This document shows positions 3,848-19,568 of a stretch of 64,000 nt of DNA, one piece after another (the first letter of the stretch is position 1; every line of letters starts with the position of its first letter). Under the pieces are notes generated by a model. That model ran no database searches and was not told the DNA's origin. It saw only the letters and a program-made list of their open reading frames with translations. Position numbers and translations under genes: made by a program. This DNA comes from Candidatus Saccharimonadales bacterium. Its GTDB lineage: Bacteria > Patescibacteriota > Saccharimonadia > Saccharimonadales > JBGSXW01. The DNA lies in NCBI GenBank assembly GCA_041751215.1, contig JBGSXW010000005.1, positions 195,664 to 259,663 on the forward strand. The letters are read 5' to 3'.

Positions 3848-4117
3848 CTACTCCGGTCGATAATTTTTGACTACTTGTTGCGCGTTGATGCCGTTGACCA
3901 AATTTGTAAATCCCATTCCTTTCAGGATTTGAATAGACGTATTAGAGCGGCTCCCGGACCTACAGTAAACAATAATCTCGGTGTCTCTATCAATGCTCTC
4001 AAGTTCAGGTGGATTTGAAAGTATTGCGGTTGGAGGAATATTAATCGCACCGCCTACGTGGCCTGACTCGAACTCAAACGGTTCTCGTACATCAATAATT
4101 AACCGGCTTAACTTCAT
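3848..4117 (-). CDS. rhodanese-domain sulfurtransferase (single domain)
   Basis: IIDVREPFEFESGHVGGAINIP together with the active-site loop VYCRSGSRS. The start was moved to ATG 4117 (MKLSRLIIDV), preceded by TATAAT-N6 (rc 4124..4129). The longer ORF to 4210 would overlap the tRNA-like gene. Confidence 0.8.
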   Translation of the reverse strand: MKLSRLIIDVREPFEFESGHVGGAINIPPTAILSNPPELESIDRDTEIIVYCRSGSRSNTSIQILKGMGFTNLVNGINAQQVVKNYRPE

Positions 4118-4182
4118 GCCTCTATTATAATCCTCACCAAGATATAGAAAAAGCAGCAACCAAATGGCTACTGCTTTTTCTA

Positions 4183-4317
4183 TGGCTCCGGGGAAAGGAT
4201 AATCGCACATTTCCTCACGTGCTCTCCGCCTAAGGCGGATGCGCGCGCTCGTTATGACCGAACCTTCGACCTAGTGGTTAACAGCCACCCGTCCGCCAAC
4301 TGGCGGACTACCCCGGA
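4183..4317 (-). pseudogene. tRNA-Asn(GUU)-like gene with about 55 nt inserted in the T arm (interrupted or degenerate tRNA)
   Basis: On the minus strand the acceptor is TCCGGGG/CCCCGGA followed by G and CCA. The D arm is GTCC-GCCAGTTGGC-GGAC. The anticodon arm is GGTGG-CTGTTAA-CCACT (GUU). T stem GAAGG/CCTTT is split by about 55 nt that contains the hairpin TCCGCC-TTA-GGCGGA. Total length is 135 nt. Confidence 0.45.
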
Positions 4318-4331
4318 TTATTAACAATTCT

Positions 4332-4406
4332 TGGCTCCGGAGGCCGGACTCGAACCGGCAGCCCTCTGATTAACAGTCAGATGCTCTACCATTGAGCTAC
4401 TCCGGA
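4332..4406 (-). tRNA. tRNA-Asn (anticodon GUU)
   Basis: A manual 75-nt cloverleaf reads TCCGGAG TA GCTC AATGGTA GAGC A TCTGA CTGTTAA TCAGA GGGCT GCCGG TTCGAGT CCGGC CTCCGGA G CCA. Confidence 0.9.
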
Positions 4407-4657
4407 TTACCAGAATTGTTAATAATTCCTTTTACGAACTGTCGTCCTCTGAAGCTTTTGAGTTGATTTTCGCGCTGTATGGCTGCCTGGCGGGTAGGTT
4501 GTTCTTCTTGATAGATTAACGTCCAGTTGCCCTTTTGCGCCGTGAAATGTTTTTCGCGCTTTGCCCTATGTTCGGATAGACGACGTTCAATGTTTGAGGT
4601 CTGACCGATATAAATGCTTTGCGTTAGGTCATTGTATATAACGTAAACAATAAACAT
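4397..4657 (-). CDS. GIY-YIG nuclease family protein (small stand-alone type)
   Basis: 86 aa. VYVIYNDLTQSIYIGQTSNIERRLSEH gives the GIY...YIG and Arg motifs, and a later RENQLK supplies the Glu. The last 10 nt including the TAG stop lie inside the 5' end of tRNA-Asn. Confidence 0.8.
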   Translation of the reverse strand: MFIVYVIYNDLTQSIYIGQTSNIERRLSEHRAKREKHFTAQKGNWTLIYQEEQPTRQAAIQRENQLKSFRGRQFVKGIINNSGNPE

Positions 4658-4671
4658 TTAGTAATTTTACG

Positions 4672-4705
4672 GCCACCTGTCCGCCAACTGGCGGACTACC
4701 CCGAT
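4672..4705 (-). repeat. orphan copy of the variant tRNA-Asn 5' half (acceptor 5' strand, D arm and 5' anticodon stem)
   Basis: The minus strand reads ATCGGGGTAGTCCGCCAGTTGGCGGACAGGTGGC. It is near-identical to 4317..4284 and diverges exactly at the start of the anticodon loop. The GIY-YIG ATG follows 12 nt downstream. Confidence 0.6.
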
Positions 4706-4726
4706 TTCTAATGTGCGTCCAAGGCT

Positions 4727-4761
4727 AGCCACCCGTCCGCCAACTGGCGGACTACCCCGGA
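4727..4761 (-). repeat. orphan copy of the variant tRNA-Asn 5' half
   Basis: The minus strand reads TCCGGGGTAGTCCGCCAGTTGGCGGACGGGTGGCT. It is identical to 4317..4283 and then diverges at anticodon-loop position 33/34. Confidence 0.6.
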
Positions 4762-4863
4762 TTACGCTAGCTAATTGTAATCGTAACCAGCTGAGGAGTA
4801 AACAGGAAAGAAAACTTGCATTGACTGATATAATTACAAGCATAAGCAGAGTCAACACAAGAT

Positions 4864-5391
4864 ATGCGCGACGATCAACACGGCTTTACTATTATCGAAG
4901 TCGTGCTGGTATTGGCTGTTGCCGGCTTGATTTTTCTGATCGTGTTCGTGGCTTTACCTCAGTTGCAGCGTGCTCGGCGCGACACTCAGCGCAAATCACA
5001 TCTAGGTCAGGTCGCCGGAGCAATTGAATCATTTGCATCAAATAATCGTGGGCTATATCCGACGACCTCAGCCGGTACGTTTGATGACTTTGTAGATGGG
5101 GTAGAAGCGAACTTCATAAGTCCCAGCACTGGTCTTCCGTACGACTATCACTATCGAAGCGTTTCGGGAGCTTGGACTGCCAACACTTCGCCCGACGAGA
5201 TTTATATGGATGGGAGCAACGCTCGTTGTCGTGATCCCGGCGAAGTCCCGATTGGCTCGGAATATAATCCATTTGAATACTTCGATGAAGATCAGCAAGA
5301 TCACCGAAGTCTTGCATCTTTTGCGGTGGTAATTGGATTAGAAACTGGCGGCTGGTACTGCCTAGACAACAGCGGCCCGCAGCTGCCTTAG
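4864..5391 (+). CDS. type IV pilin-like protein with a prepilin-type N-terminal cleavage/methylation domain
   Basis: MRDDQHG|FTIIEVVLVLAVAGLIFLIV shows the G-F-T-x-x-E prepilin motif followed by a hydrophobic helix. 175 aa. Confidence 0.8.
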   Translation: MRDDQHGFTIIEVVLVLAVAGLIFLIVFVALPQLQRARRDTQRKSHLGQVAGAIESFASNNRGLYPTTSAGTFDDFVDGVEANFISPSTGLPYDYHYRSVSGAWTANTSPDEIYMDGSNARCRDPGEVPIGSEYNPFEYFDEDQQDHRSLASFAVVIGLETGGWYCLDNSGPQLP

Positions 5392-16914: not shown

Positions 16915-17949
16915 ATGATGTTTATCCTTACCACGCTAGCTTTACTGGCACTTTTAGCAACTGCGACTTTGGCTACTGCCATGCAAATTGGTGTGCTTGG
17001 CGTAAGTCGATACGAGCTAAAACGTCGAAGTGAAGAAGGCGATGAAGAAGCGCGCTTAGTCTACCCACTCCGCAGTCGAAGCGGAGAACTAGTTACGCTA
17101 CTAACTTTAAAGAAGGTTTTTACCGAAGTTCTGTTCGTTGTCTTGCTGGCTTGGTGGCTTCCGGGAAGCAATATATTTACCTCGTTTCTTGCAATCGTAA
17201 TTGCCTCTGCAACTCTGGCAGCCATTGTTGAACTACTGCCTAGGGCTTGGCTTAAGCCATACGGTTTTAAGTTGGCTGCGCGCACAGCACCAATGGTTGT
17301 TTACGGCATGGATTTGATCAAGCCACTGAGCCTACCGGTAGTAAACAAATTTGGGATCGACGAACCCGATGGTCCAGAAGTTCACTCGGTCGAGGAACTA
17401 GTAGACATAATTAGCAACCGACGCACTCGTAAAGAGACAAAACTCGACGCGCAGCAAATTAGTGTCATCCAGGGAGCTTTGGGTTTTGGCACAATGGCAA
17501 TCCGGGAAATCATGACCCCGCGCAGTGTTATAACCGCCATTGATCAAAAAACTGAGCTCAATACTGGCCAGCTCAAAAAACTTCACGATAGTGGACATTC
17601 GCGGTTTCCGGTGTTTGAAGAATCCATTGATCACATAGTCAGCATCCTCTATCTTCACGACCTAGTGAGTTTGCGCCAAGAGCACATCACGGCTCGACAA
17701 GCTGCTAAAGGAAAGGTCTATTACGTTAACGAGGACGAAAACCTCGAGCATGTTTTAAACGCTTTTATCAAAACTCGCCATCATTTATTTATCGTTGTTA
17801 ATGAGTTTGAGGAAGTAGTCGGCCTAGTAACTATCGAGGATGTGCTTGAGCAAATTCTTGGTCGCAAGATCGTTGATGAGTTTGATAAGTACGATGATCT
17901 TCGTGAGGTTGCCGCTAAACGTAAACCTCAGGGCCAAAAGGCCACCTAA
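16915..17949 (+). CDS. CNNM/DUF21 transmembrane domain plus CBS-pair protein (HlyC/CorC family)
   Basis: 344 aa. About 4 N-terminal TM helices are followed by IREIMTPRSVITAID and VGLVTIEDVLEQI, typical of tandem CBS domains. Confidence 0.8.
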   Translation: MMFILTTLALLALLATATLATAMQIGVLGVSRYELKRRSEEGDEEARLVYPLRSRSGELVTLLTLKKVFTEVLFVVLLAWWLPGSNIFTSFLAIVIASATLAAIVELLPRAWLKPYGFKLAARTAPMVVYGMDLIKPLSLPVVNKFGIDEPDGPEVHSVEELVDIISNRRTRKETKLDAQQISVIQGALGFGTMAIREIMTPRSVITAIDQKTELNTGQLKKLHDSGHSRFPVFEESIDHIVSILYLHDLVSLRQEHITARQAAKGKVYYVNEDENLEHVLNAFIKTRHHLFIVVNEFEEVVGLVTIEDVLEQILGRKIVDEFDKYDDLREVAAKRKPQGQKAT

Positions 17950-17974
17950 TTTATCTTCAGTACAAACCGACCTG

Positions 17975-18170
17975 CTTTGTCGCTCCCGCGACGGGGGTTG
18001 TTGCCACTTTTTAAAAAGTGGCTCAAAACCTACCCGCTACTATAAAAACTCTCATGAGCCTGCTTCATCCAAACCTCGGGCGGCTGCGGAGTTCGTCCGC
18101 CAACTGGCGGACAGTCCTCGCCGCTCCGGGTTTTGACCTCGCAAGCTCAGAGGTTTTTACAGATGCGGAG
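17975..18170 (+). repeat. structured intergenic repeat, copy B (with an 11-nt apical insertion)
   Basis: It shares a 5' module (CTTTGTCGCTCCCGCGACGGGGG) with copy C. H1 is GCCACTTTT-TAAA-AAGTGGC. Helices are TCCAAACC/GGTTTTGA and GCGGC/GCCGC. The apex carries the perfect hairpin GTCCGCC-AACT-GGCGGAC (18095..18112). Confidence 0.7.
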
Positions 18171-18245
18171 GTGAAAAAGAGTTTCATGCCCTGTCTGCGA
18201 TTCGGACTCTGAGATCGGACCTGACTTCTGTTATAATTGGTCGCA

Positions 18246-19568
18246 ATGAGAACGTTAGCTAGAGACATCGCCGAACAGGTCGGCAAACCAACAACAATTC
18301 AGGGTTGGTTACATAAAAAACGCTTGCTTGGTGGACTGGCCTTTATTTTAGTTCGAGATCGCAGCGGTGTAGTTCAGGTTGTAGTGGAGGACAAAGACGA
18401 AGTCGAGAAGCTCCGAGGTTTGCAAATCGGAACAGTTCTAGAAGTTTCGGGCGACGTCACTAAAGAAGATCGAGCACCTGGCGGTGCCGAGATTCACGAG
18501 CCAAAGTTAAATGTTCTAGTTCCGGTGACCGACGAGCCCCCAATCGAAATCGATAAGCCTATTAGTCACAAGTCAGAAAACCTCGATACGCTGCTCGACT
18601 ATCGTCCGCTGACCCTGCGTAACCTACAAGAAAAAGCTATTTTTAAAGTTCAGGCAACAGTCTTAAAGGCTTTTCGTGAGTTTTTTGCCGACAACGATTT
18701 TACAGAGATAAATAGCCCCAAGCTTTTGGCCGAAGCCACCGAGGGCGGAGCCGAAACTTTCAAGCTAGACTACTTCGGCAAAACCGCCACGCTTGCACAA
18801 TCGGCTCAGTTTTATAAGCAAATGATGGTCGGTGTTTTTGAGCGAGTCTTTGAGACAAACCCAACTTATAGAGCCGAGCCAAGTGCCACGACTCGCCACA
18901 TGACCGAGTACATAACAATTGATGCCGAGATCGGGTTAATTGAGTTTGAAGAACTCATGAACTACGCCGGCGACTGCCTGGCTTACATAATCAAGACCGT
19001 CCAGTCTGAGTGTGCCCAGGAACTAAAATCTTGGAACGTGCAGTCCTTTACATTGCCAGAGAGTGGCAAAGATATTCCGCGACTTACCATTACTGAAATC
19101 CACGAACTTTTCTTACAGGCTACTAAAGAAGATCACACCGGTGAGGATGATTTGGCGCCCGCTGAAGAGAAATGGATTTGCGAACACGCCAAGAAAAATC
19201 TCAATTCCGAAGCCGTGTTTGTTGTAGGTTGGCCGGCAAAAAGTAAAACCTTTAAGTTTTATCATCGGGCAAACGAACAAGATCCTGAACTTGCTGATCG
19301 CGCCGACTTGCTATTCCGCGGAGTCGAGATCACCACCCTTAGCATGCGCGAAAACCGCTACGACAAGCTAATAGAACAACTCAAAGCCAATGGCGGCGAT
19401 CCAGATAGCGCCGGTTACGCACCGTTACTTAGCGCCTACAAGTACGGCATGCCACCGCACGGCGGGTGGGGTTGGGGACTAGAACGAACCGTGCAGCGTA
19501 TTTTAGGACTCAATAACGTCAAAGAAGCCACGCTTTTCCCACGGGATATTAATCGACTGAGCCCGTAG
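18246..19568 (+). CDS. aspS: aspartate--tRNA ligase, archaeal/eukaryal type (possibly non-discriminating)
   Basis: The N-terminal OB fold is IQGWLHKKRLLGGLAFILVRDRSG. Class IIb motifs are YRAEPSATTRHMTEY and GMPPHGGWGWGLERTV, ending in LFPRDINRLSP. At about 440 aa it matches archaeal-type AspRS length. The start is set at ATG 18246, 8 nt after TATAAT (18232..18237). The ORF track begins at TTG 18237. Confidence 0.85.
   Translation: MRTLARDIAEQVGKPTTIQGWLHKKRLLGGLAFILVRDRSGVVQVVVEDKDEVEKLRGLQIGTVLEVSGDVTKEDRAPGGAEIHEPKLNVLVPVTDEPPIEIDKPISHKSENLDTLLDYRPLTLRNLQEKAIFKVQATVLKAFREFFADNDFTEINSPKLLAEATEGGAETFKLDYFGKTATLAQSAQFYKQMMVGVFERVFETNPTYRAEPSATTRHMTEYITIDAEIGLIEFEELMNYAGDCLAYIIKTVQSECAQELKSWNVQSFTLPESGKDIPRLTITEIHELFLQATKEDHTGEDDLAPAEEKWICEHAKKNLNSEAVFVVGWPAKSKTFKFYHRANEQDPELADRADLLFRGVEITTLSMRENRYDKLIEQLKANGGDPDSAGYAPLLSAYKYGMPPHGGWGWGLERTVQRILGLNNVKEATLFPRDINRLSP

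Follow-up and report, generated by a model that had tools for sequence, protein, structure and literature searches.

A small GIY-YIG nuclease gene, a 16-bp palindrome and partial tRNA copies form a recurrent cassette at tRNA genes, mostly in Patescibacteria

Introduction

Free-standing GIY-YIG homing endonucleases, the Seg proteins, are known from T-even phages, and SegB is encoded in the tRNA gene cluster of phage T4 (PMC2330249, PMC13096335). Here, we analysed a 64,000-nt stretch (the window) of contig JBGSXW010000005.1 from a Candidatus Saccharimonadales bacterium (assembly GCA_041751215.1, positions 195,664 to 259,663), in which an open reading frame (ORF) for an 86-amino-acid (aa) GIY-YIG protein, a 16-bp palindrome (PAL) set in partial tRNA copies and an intact tRNA-Asn gene lie together, an arrangement that recurs at tRNA genes in many genomes. 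No description of this cassette was found in the full-text literature, most subscription journals lying outside the search, and it is apparently undescribed. By analogy, it would work most like a free-standing homing endonuclease gene such as that of T4 SegB. In both cases the GIY-YIG gene lies between or next to tRNA genes, break-induced gene conversion of the flanking tRNA DNA is presumed, and tRNA segments are duplicated or amplified in association with the nuclease. However, I-TevI and the Seg proteins (about 200+ aa) have a DNA-binding domain joined to the catalytic one, whereas the cassette protein, of 82-90 aa, consists of a catalytic domain only, of the Slx1/UPF0213 branch. Moreover, unlike the Seg genes, the cassette is chromosomal in Patescibacteria, with only generic N-terminal matches in IMG/VR, almost always comes with a 16-bp palindrome in a partial tRNA copy, and often has its ORF stop inside the tRNA.

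Other known systems share single traits with the cassette. The best profile and fold matches of its protein are the UPF0213 or bacterial Slx1-like proteins (EF2693, 1ywl; BH0048, 1zg2) and eukaryotic Slx1, and the small single-domain architecture is shared; we found no description of a function or tRNA-gene context of UPF0213 in the searchable literature, and Slx1 needs Slx4 and acts in genome maintenance. Tyrosine-integrase islands and prophages likewise duplicate part of a tRNA gene on insertion while a functional copy survives, but the cassette has no integrase, its duplicated part is usually the 5′ one, its cargo is about 300-400 bp and its junction holds a conserved palindrome. REP/RAYT elements (REPtrons) and IS200/IS605 also combine a short palindromic hairpin with one small nuclease gene and leave solo hairpins scattered in intergenic DNA; the cassette enzyme, in contrast, is of the GIY-YIG type rather than an HUH/Y1 transposase, and its palindrome is only 16 bp long, lies mostly within tRNA-derived sequence and has a low copy number. 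Finally, archaeal multi-intron and split tRNA genes, which are spliced at bulge-helix-bulge motifs, carry hairpin-like inserts in the D loop, variable region and T loop as some copies here do, whereas the present host is bacterial, the inserts are all of one constant sequence and often take the place of stems, most loci also have an uninterrupted tRNA, and there is no splicing endonuclease context.

The locus and its recurrence across genomes

All elements of the window locus, from a promoter-like site to a terminator-like hairpin, lie on the minus strand, as follows.

4802-4774, minus: promoter-like site from a consensus scan, with -35 TTTACT, a 17-nt spacer and -10 TACAAT
4764 to 4727, minus: copy A, a TAA leader followed by tRNA-Asn-like nt 1-10, PAL (4751 to 4736) and nt 25-33
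about 4704 to 4672, minus: copy B, a diverged 5′ module made of TCGGGGTAG, PAL (4695 to 4680) and CAGGTGGC
4669 to 4664, minus: -10-like hexamer TAAAAT, read from the sequence, 6 nt 5′ of the ATG
4657 to 4397, minus: GIY-YIG nuclease ORF of 86 aa (Pfam PF01541)
4426-4412, minus: left arm of a perfect inverted repeat of 15 bp, within the 3′-terminal part of the ORF
4406 to 4332, minus: canonical tRNA-Asn(GTT), called by ARAGORN and by Rfam (tRNA, 75.7 bits)
4331-4317, minus: right arm of the same inverted repeat, within the trailer of the tRNA; its final base is also nt 1 of the tRNA-like gene
4317 to 4183, minus: 135-nt tRNA-Asn-like gene, ending GCCA
4183-4144, minus: terminator-like hairpin with 19-nt arms, 89% complementary, closing the transcription unit

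The original prediction, made from the letters of the window, had named four of these elements: the canonical tRNA-Asn, a second GUU tRNA-like sequence downstream of it, two copies of the 5′ part of the latter, and the GIY-YIG ORF. ARAGORN, Rfam, a repeat search and Pfam placed all four correctly to within 1-2 nt; copy B starts at 4704 rather than 4705, and the ATG lies 14 nt, not 12, after the GGTGGC of copy B. Over a 38-nt direct repeat, copy A has 100% identity with the start of the tRNA-like gene, and the identity of copy B is 87%; a 22-nt spacer separates the two, and both end, as predicted, at GGTGGC(T), corresponding to position 32/33 in the anticodon loop. The 24-mer formed by GGGGTAG and the hairpin occurs three times in the window against 0.00 expected. 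The ORF overlaps the canonical tRNA by 10 nt, so that its TAG stop is tRNA nt 8-10, and this tRNA, nearly identical to the one for Asn in the Saccharibacteria locus L021, is separated by 14 nt from the tRNA-like gene. The perfect 38-nt repeats, copy A and the tRNA-like 5′ end, flank a 406-nt segment consisting of the spacer, copy B, the ORF, the tRNA within its inverted repeat and the trailer. The promoter-like site stops 12 nt 5′ of copy A and is likely the native tRNA promoter, which would drive the whole unit.

We then turned to loci encoding relatives of the 86-aa protein. In the context of three homologues, tRNA-Asn abuts the ORF in five of six loci, and the sixth contig stops before the tRNA position. 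Scanning a single genome from each GTDB species added 80 loci, and 83 non-redundant loci were compared. The hosts are mostly Patescibacteria (Saccharibacteria, Microgenomates, Paceibacteria, Moranbacteria, Berkelbacteria and others), with a few loci from Ignavibacteria or Bacteroidota. A same-strand tRNA begins no more than 150 nt past the ORF stop in 61 of the 83 loci (40 Asn, 17 Lys, 2 Met, 1 His and 1 Thr), the UAG stop codon is tRNA nt 8-10 in 33 of them, as in the window, and a CCGCC-NNNN-GGCGG palindrome lies 15-90 nt 5′ of the ORF in 76; loci outside these counts are mostly cut by a contig end or arranged in mirror image. The first 10 nt of the downstream tRNA recur 5′ of the ORF in 53 of 65 loci, and the upstream fragments are usually 100% identical to the local tRNA, from which they evidently derive. 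The association of tRNA fragments with the GIY-YIG gene is therefore systematic, the reverse of what would have spoken against the original prediction, namely fragments unconnected with the gene or a gene placed at random. The two copies in the window had been taken for orphan halves left by breaks at the anticodon loop, or alternatively for split or processed tRNA halves. Neither view is supported: an intact tRNA accompanies the ORF in most loci, and the "halves" are a conserved module, a tRNA 5′ part with the 16-bp palindrome and sometimes a -10 box after it, rather than debris.

Most loci have the order tRNA 5′ part with PAL, ORF, intact tRNA (type I). In type II loci (the window, L002, L013, L019, L022, L036, L046 and L068), an extra PAL-bearing 3′ fragment or full-length tRNA-like copy follows the intact tRNA, and then a terminator. 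The order is mirrored in the Bacteroidota loci, L061 and L079, where the intact tRNA precedes the ORF and PAL and a tRNA 3′ fragment follow it.

Copy B is the standard type B upstream module of the ORF in this family, and such a module is also found in L001, L007, L011, L013, L021, L141, L180, L194, L205, L208 and L213. The TAAAAT hexamer occupies the place of the anticodon loop (CTGTTAA) in copy B, whose continuation CCGTAAAAT parallels CTGTAAAAT in L011, L205 and L208. Judged from the sequence, the anticodon loop of a tRNA-Asn appears to have been turned into a -10-like box 6 nt 5′ of the ATG, a putative promoter element. No Shine-Dalgarno sequence is evident 5′ of the window ORF, so that a leaderless start is possible there. 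A -10-like hexamer 4-9 nt 5′ of the ATG occurs in 11 of 65 loci and in none of the shifted control; with a strong hexamer in these 11 only, a universal leaderless promoter for the family is ruled out, and a leaderless start is plausible for the window but is not a family rule.

Many contigs (L008, L009, L012, L027, L030, L031, L038 and L083) end within a few tens of nt of the ORF stop or tRNA, which suggests assembly breaks caused by repeated tRNA segments or strain heterogeneity.

The palindrome

PAL has the near-invariant 16-bp consensus TCCGCC-RRYY-GGCGGA, and all 12 stem positions are at least 95% conserved among 128 copies from about 80 species. In these copies, the half-sites are alike on both sides, with TCCGCCAG found 74 times on the left and 83 times on the right and TCCGCCGG 18 and 17 times. 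The centres also pair with their reverse complements (GGCT 16 and AGCC 14; AACT 14 and AGTT 6), and stem changes show no excess of G-U pairs (5 GT/TG, 10 other mismatches). These features suggest recognition of PAL as a symmetric DNA duplex, or at the least by its sequence, in preference to recognition of an RNA loop with a fixed orientation; with symmetric half-sites and centres in both orientations, a dimer on duplex DNA fits better than an RNA loop. The PAL centre (CCAGCTGG) resembles the D-loop DNA CAGYTGG.

The place of PAL within the tRNA copy falls into five registers.

Type A: PAL replaces tRNA nt 14-16, in the D loop; most Asn loci
Type B: nt 11-23, the whole D arm, replaced; the window, L001, L007, L011, L013, L021 and L068
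Type C: nt 9-11 replaced; L015, L025 and L030
Lys type: nt 24-31 replaced; most Lys loci
Met type: nt 22-32 replaced; Ignavibacteria loci

PAL position (D loop, whole D arm, nt 9-11 or 5′ strand of the anticodon stem) varies with the protein clade, indicating that the anticodon loop is not a general break point. In L002, L022, L060, L065, L066 and L082 one PAL is nested within another and, in our own reading of these sequences, the inner PAL seems to be centred in the outer one, a placement like that of PAL in the D loop. A single tRNA copy of L002 holds as many as three PALs, and L002 and L022 carry hairpins in the D loop, variable region and T arm.

Two simple roles for PAL were considered and rejected. 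A general role as a pure operator is ruled out by the Bacteroidota-type loci and L061, where PAL lies 3′ of the ORF, and site-specific recombination exactly at PAL is ruled out for the window, where the duplicated unit is the whole 38-nt module and not PAL alone.

A second palindrome family, of the CCTGCC-GGCAGG type, was seen at L004 2936-2949, L005 2932-2945, L028 1441-1458, L019 921-938 and L048 1963-1976. It sits between tRNA nt 9 and 10 of the upstream fragment in L004/L005 and L028, and its length differs between the near-identical contigs L004 and L005.

The nuclease

The ORF product matches the GIY-YIG model PF01541 with 63.4 bits (cut-off 22.6; E=2.5e-17). In an alignment of the window protein with 25 homologues, Y16, R26, H30 and E63 are invariant among the 26 sequences, Y5 is present in at least 90%, and the Y16-I17-G18 motif is kept. 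A profile search of the PDB ranked the UPF0213 structures 1ywl (EF2693; 5.4e-07) and 1zg2 (BH0048; 7.2e-07) before SLX1 (4.6e-05) and I-TevI (1.5e-04), with modest margins. The AlphaFold2 model has a predicted local distance difference test score (pLDDT) of 82 and the order beta-beta-alpha-beta-alpha-alpha, with strands at 2-9, 14-20 and 45-53 and helices at 23-32, 56-67 and 69-82. Its best Foldseek matches are 1zg2 (BH0048), Slx1 (6seh, 4xlg and 7cq3) and the I-TevI catalytic domain; the Slx1 structures superpose with a root-mean-square deviation of 2.4-2.6 A over 71-72 columns, and the fold search reproduces the profile order, UPF0213/Slx1 ahead of I-TevI. Taken together, sequence and model place the 86-aa protein in the Slx1/UPF0213 branch as a predicted nuclease that is a bare catalytic domain.

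The family is large: when 1.84 billion cluster representatives were searched with the profile, 3010 clusters (50% identity) matched at E<=1e-10, mostly of 80-95 aa. Most homologues of the window protein measure 81-92 aa, and their annotation in the sources goes no further than "endonuclease" or "GIY-YIG nuclease". The C-terminal "IPx" of many homologues is the 5′ end of tRNA-Asn (TCC...) translated in frame. Some gene calls in the family are N-terminally extended, among them P0005, P0010 and many entries of 105-135 aa; the VALRQLAEVER of P0005 and P0010 looks like translated PAL (RQLAE matches CGCCAGCTGGCGGA), an apparent annotation artefact. Recognition of the cassette corrects such calls, which run through the palindrome.

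Links to tRNA exist elsewhere in this branch. The TrmH Gm18 site is in the tRNA D loop, and we take COG4123 to be the tRNA m6A37 methylase TrmN6/YfiC. A 2006 survey reported bacterial Slx1-like GIY-YIG domains fused to an orthologue of TrmH (tRNA Gm18) and repeatedly adjoining COG4123 methyltransferases (PMC1564403).

The tRNA-like gene and the two tRNA lineages

The 135-nt gene has a perfect acceptor stem (TCCGGGG/CCCCGGA), discriminator G, an encoded CCA and the anticodon loop CTGTTAA, with the GTT anticodon at 4282 to 4280. The original prediction had described an atypical D arm able to form a 7-bp hairpin; the hairpin is there (GTCCGCC-AGTT-GGCGGAC), but it is PAL (4307 to 4292), the key shared feature of these loci, and it replaces the D arm rather than being one. 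The T arm was predicted to be split by about 55 nt with a hairpin of its own, which agrees with what we found: the T stem GAAGG/CCTTT encloses a 64-nt loop, an excess of 57 nt, containing the PAL-like hairpin TCCGCC-TTA-GGCGGA at 4239 to 4225. The whole sequence folds with the perfect acceptor stem, the 7-bp hairpin for the D arm and a GUU anticodon arm (z = -3.25). No tRNA model matched 4183-4317, either in ARAGORN or with Rfam RF00005 even at E<=10, and BLAST against the window and the loci fetched by then gave no homologue of the 57-nt insert. Full-length analogues with a replaced D arm occur in L068 and L163.

The second gene, which the original prediction had described as interrupted, differs from the canonical one as follows.

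Acceptor 5′ strand: TCCGGAG in the canonical tRNA-Asn, TCCGGGG in the tRNA-like gene
Anticodon stem: TCTGA/TCAGA in the canonical tRNA-Asn, GGTGG/CCACT in the tRNA-like gene
T stem: GCCGG/CCGGC in the canonical tRNA-Asn, GAAGG/CCTTT in the tRNA-like gene

Acceptor pair 6:67, the anticodon stem and the T stem separate the two genes, and with such large stem differences the tRNA-like gene is not a recent copy of the canonical tRNA-Asn; we infer that it is a disabled tRNA-Asn of another lineage. Similarly, three loci, those of the window, L036 and L013, have PAL-bearing pieces on the 5′ and 3′ sides that match each other and differ from the intact tRNA.

Signs of mobility, and host range

In a neighbour-joining tree (about 80 residues), protein clades track PAL register and tRNA type, while host groups are interleaved, Saccharibacteria with Microgenomates, Paceibacteria, Moranbacteria and Berkelbacteria. 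The unit of fragment, PAL, fragment and ORF occurs twice in tandem in L026, L052 and L081, with comparable repeats in L017 and L071, and it looks as if the intact tRNA had been hit again. L070 (1780-2074) holds at least four 84-nt PAL-tRNA-like units with the anticodon-loop sequence CTTTCAA. Truncated or interrupted ORFs were found in L086, L194 and L212. The distribution of the cassette is patchy, and a related Saccharibacterium (L135) has a plain tRNA-Asn, at a different locus. Only generic N-terminal GIY-YIG matches were obtained in the viral contigs of IMG/VR, and the absence of the family there indicates that it is chromosomal and not phage-borne; a distant search of plasmids matched the tRNA-Asn itself only.

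In addition, Lys-like units are repeated in L039 (1838-2190), and each of them has two palindromes.

A probable selfish cassette of tRNA genes

The reading that we prefer, and that we hold to have about as much chance of being right as wrong, is a selfish cassette resident in tRNA genes, built around the Slx1/UPF0213-like nuclease and spread by break-induced copying, with PAL as its site in cis. The core is the 86-aa predicted nuclease gene, PAL in a partial copy of the presumed target tRNA, and an intact tRNA directly after the ORF, which often takes its stop codon from tRNA nt 8-10. The nuclease would break DNA in or next to a tRNA gene, or PAL-bearing tRNA-like DNA, and repair templated by an occupied allele would carry over PAL and the ORF together with as much tRNA sequence as is needed for an intact tRNA to remain. 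The cassette would bring along a duplicate of the tRNA 5′ part, in some loci of the whole tRNA, so that the host keeps a working tRNA; placed behind the tRNA's own promoter, between it and the tRNA, the element could not easily be silenced or deleted by the host, as its removal would tend to cost an essential gene. PAL would mark the junction where the disrupted tRNA copy was cut, and would most likely be a dimeric DNA binding or cleavage site of the nuclease, possibly also an operator in some loci.

The window locus would then be a compound copy of the cassette. A resident tRNA-Asn (acceptor TCCGGGG, anticodon stem GGTGG) would have been disabled by PAL and later by the T-loop insertion, and the block of copy B, ORF and clamped tRNA-Asn of the other lineage would have come to lie between the two 38-nt repeats. 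That the resident tRNA-Asn was split or disabled while the functional tRNA arrived with the cassette is probably the simplest history; the reverse is also possible. Of the homing-endonuclease or intron activity proposed originally, the first part stands as the best available account, a homing-like selfish element, whereas the intron part is contradicted by the absence of a ribozyme core and of a restorable D arm.

Several points weigh against the selfish-cassette reading. The 86-aa domain has no obvious DNA-recognition module. The adjacent intact tRNA would still be a target of a nuclease specific for tRNA genes, which leaves immunity unexplained, although the tandem re-insertions may reflect precisely this. 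Simple homing does not explain PAL-only insertions, that is, triple, nested and solo PALs, and the conservation of PAL together with the 100% identity of fragments could reflect a function at the level of the host. The TrmH fusion and COG4123 proximity hint at an RNA role for this GIY-YIG branch. The tree incongruence is weak evidence because the protein is short, and no pair of empty and occupied alleles at one orthologous site was found via homologues of the neighbouring rhodanese, around which there was no conserved synteny either.

A bolder variant, which we consider unlikely, is a new class of mobile element in which a structure- or RNA-directed Slx1-like nuclease plants a constant palindrome at hairpins resembling tRNA arms and rebuilds the tRNA that it disrupts. 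Lacking a DNA-binding domain, the nuclease would find its sites through nucleic-acid structure and not through contacts of the protein with DNA sequence. Enzymes of the Slx1 type cut DNA that is branched or forms stem-loops, and by analogy a structure-directed activity is an attractive idea. The guide could be PAL itself and hairpin or cruciform tips or, more speculatively, a transcribed RNA of tRNA fragment, PAL and fragment pairing with the tRNA gene. If such direction were true, the targeting system would be unusually compact; in any case, this is a very small predicted nuclease with a candidate 16-bp site.

For the UPF0213/bacterial Slx1-like branch, a defined arrangement repeated at tRNA genes that are essential and single-copy in the streamlined Patescibacteria would be a first role in genomes. 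The cassette would also account for tRNA-like pseudogenes and for some contig breaks at tRNA-Asn or tRNA-Lys in metagenome-assembled genomes.

A possible RNA-level system and the clamp

A different explanation moves the action to RNA: the GIY-YIG protein would act on tRNA or tRNA-like RNA, PAL would be an RNA hairpin module, namely a binding site in the mRNA leader and in a CCA-ending tRNA-like RNA (decoy, regulator or substrate), and the whole would be a regulatory or conflict system linked to tRNA-Asn/Lys, not a parasite at the DNA level. The observations that speak for it are those of the full-length copies, which retain the perfect acceptor stem, G73, GUU loop and CCA, are predicted to be co-transcribed with the tRNA ahead of the terminator, and recur with replaced D arms in L068 and L163; the multiple hairpins of L002 and L022 and the fusion and neighbourhood of Slx1-like domains with tRNA-modifying enzymes (PMC1564403) point the same way.

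So does the perfect 15-bp inverted repeat (4426-4412/4331-4317) that brackets the canonical tRNA-Asn, which the original prediction had missed. Where a PAL-bearing copy follows the tRNA, 6 of 13 loci have a leader-trailer clamp of this kind (score at least 9), in contrast to 0 of 47 loci that lack such a copy (Fisher p=3e-5). The clamp sequences differ between loci while their position is the same, a pattern that reads as structural covariation, and they flank the intact tRNA only where a tRNA-like copy follows. We infer that the clamp aids correct folding or processing of the real tRNA in transcripts that contain two similar acceptor strands.

However, PAL centre variants occur in both orientations and stem changes lack G-U enrichment, PAL in the Lys, Met and Val types often stands in for one stem strand, which destroys the cloverleaf, the T-loop insert of the window is without homologue in the fetched loci, and most loci have the 5′ fragment only, which is unable to fold as a tRNA. 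Furthermore, every characterised GIY-YIG enzyme that we know of cleaves DNA. We therefore consider an RNA-level system unlikely.

Palindromes outside the cassette

PAL also occurs away from the ORF. The window holds only one GIY-YIG ORF and a fourth PAL, overlooked in the original prediction:

18096-18111, no strand assigned: solo PAL, TCCGCCAACTGGCGGA, at the apex of an imperfect hairpin of about 64 nt (about 18071-18133)

It is intergenic, 13.4 kb from the cassette, and its hairpin has z = -3.9 and -4.2; Rfam gave no match for it (17940-18250, permissive E-values), nor for any PAL element tested. A scan of metagenomes for GTAG-PAL-C returned 106 stretches, of which 80 were fetched and examined. 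About ten are type B cassettes with ORF and tRNA-Asn, and in L163 a full-length PAL-bearing tRNA-Asn-like gene follows the 3′ end of an apparent second tRNA-Asn at the contig edge. Five loci (L151, L170, L173, L175 and L197) have a tRNA-Cys 5′ fragment (GGTCGGT) with PAL 20-230 nt 5′ of an intact tRNA-Cys and no GIY-YIG ORF; this is the module at a further tRNA type, minus the ORF. About 33 non-redundant contigs carry solo PAL hairpins of roughly 44 nt, whose outer arms vary between contigs yet remain complementary, with no GIY-YIG ORF within about 1.2-1.5 kb. Some metagenomic PALs are perfect palindromes of 24-42 nt, and a few matches are chance coding hits in high-GC contigs. The solo PALs without an ORF indicate that PAL can exist, and probably spread, without the ORF, and PAL appears to favour hairpin tips.

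Such solo copies are what a REP/RAYT-like system would predict, in which PAL is the mobile unit and inserts at the apices of DNA hairpins, whether of tRNA arms, terminators, other palindromes or PAL itself, mobilised by the Slx1-like GIY-YIG nuclease; the link to tRNA would come from its several hairpins and from the resemblance of the D-loop CAGYTGG to the PAL centre. Apart from the solo PALs at hairpin apices in about 33 metagenomic contigs and at 18096-18111, this agrees with nested PALs whose inner member is at the centre of the outer, with up to three PALs per tRNA copy, with the tRNA-Cys fragments that have PAL and no ORF, and with Slx1, the nearest structural relative, cutting branched and stem-loop DNA. 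On the other hand, no mechanism known to us would insert a 16-bp palindrome of constant sequence, PALs are sparse (4 in 64 kb, the cassette accounting for 3), the Lys, Met and Val types have PAL elsewhere than at a hairpin apex, and the solo class is a biased sample because the metagenome scan forced the flanks GTAG...C. In our estimate, the probability of such a system is low.

Possible host function, introns and remnants

The cassette might instead have been domesticated, being inherited vertically and benefiting the host by regulating or protecting tRNA-Asn/Lys expression, for example through coupling of nuclease translation to RNase P processing, with the fragments under selection. ORFs that are mostly intact with conserved catalytic residues, fragments usually 100% identical to the local tRNA, and the stop-in-tRNA overlap conserved in 33 loci would all be expected from this. 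The patchy distribution with a plain tRNA-Asn in a related Saccharibacterium, the tree that is incongruent with host taxonomy, the tandem duplications and pseudogenes, and the foreign tRNA lineages inside one locus argue against it and for the selfish cassette, and they make domestication quite improbable.

Searches for other machinery gave no group I or II intron match in Rfam (gathering threshold over the 64 kb; E<=10 over 4100-4900), where the window yielded its three canonical tRNAs only and left the 135-nt gene and the fragments unmatched, and no integrase-like ORF was evident within about 4 kb, Pfam having been run on five neighbours only; the original prediction had likewise seen neither a group I core nor an integrase. 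An intron reading of PAL in the tRNA-like gene was rejected, as its excision would not restore a D arm, nt 11-24 being absent. An intron-containing or split tRNA, attachment-site (att) remnants of an integrase island or neutral decay of duplicated tRNA genes are highly improbable: loop insert positions do resemble archaeal multi-intron tRNAs and integrative elements do duplicate parts of tRNA genes, but no intron model matches, PAL removal restores no D arm, an intact tRNA adjoins the ORF in most loci, no integrase is evident among nearby ORFs, the tRNA repeats in the window are 5′ and not 3′ parts, and recurrence in 83 loci excludes chance decay.

Neighbouring genes

In a Campbellbacteria contig, a gene for a 578-aa serine recombinase on the opposite strand overlaps the 3′ end of the cassette tRNA-Asn (L004 3277-5013, L006 1374-3110); it may be part of a separate integrated element using the same tRNA. 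Exact-protein look-ups for the window GIY-YIG protein and for the neighbouring rhodanese matched no record. The rhodanese gene (window 3848-4210, minus) is recorded as a 120-aa product, P0031, whose start falls inside the 3′ end of the tRNA-like gene, so that the call spans the terminator hairpin. Rhodanese homologues are 85-90 aa long, indicating that the true start is probably the ATG at 4120.

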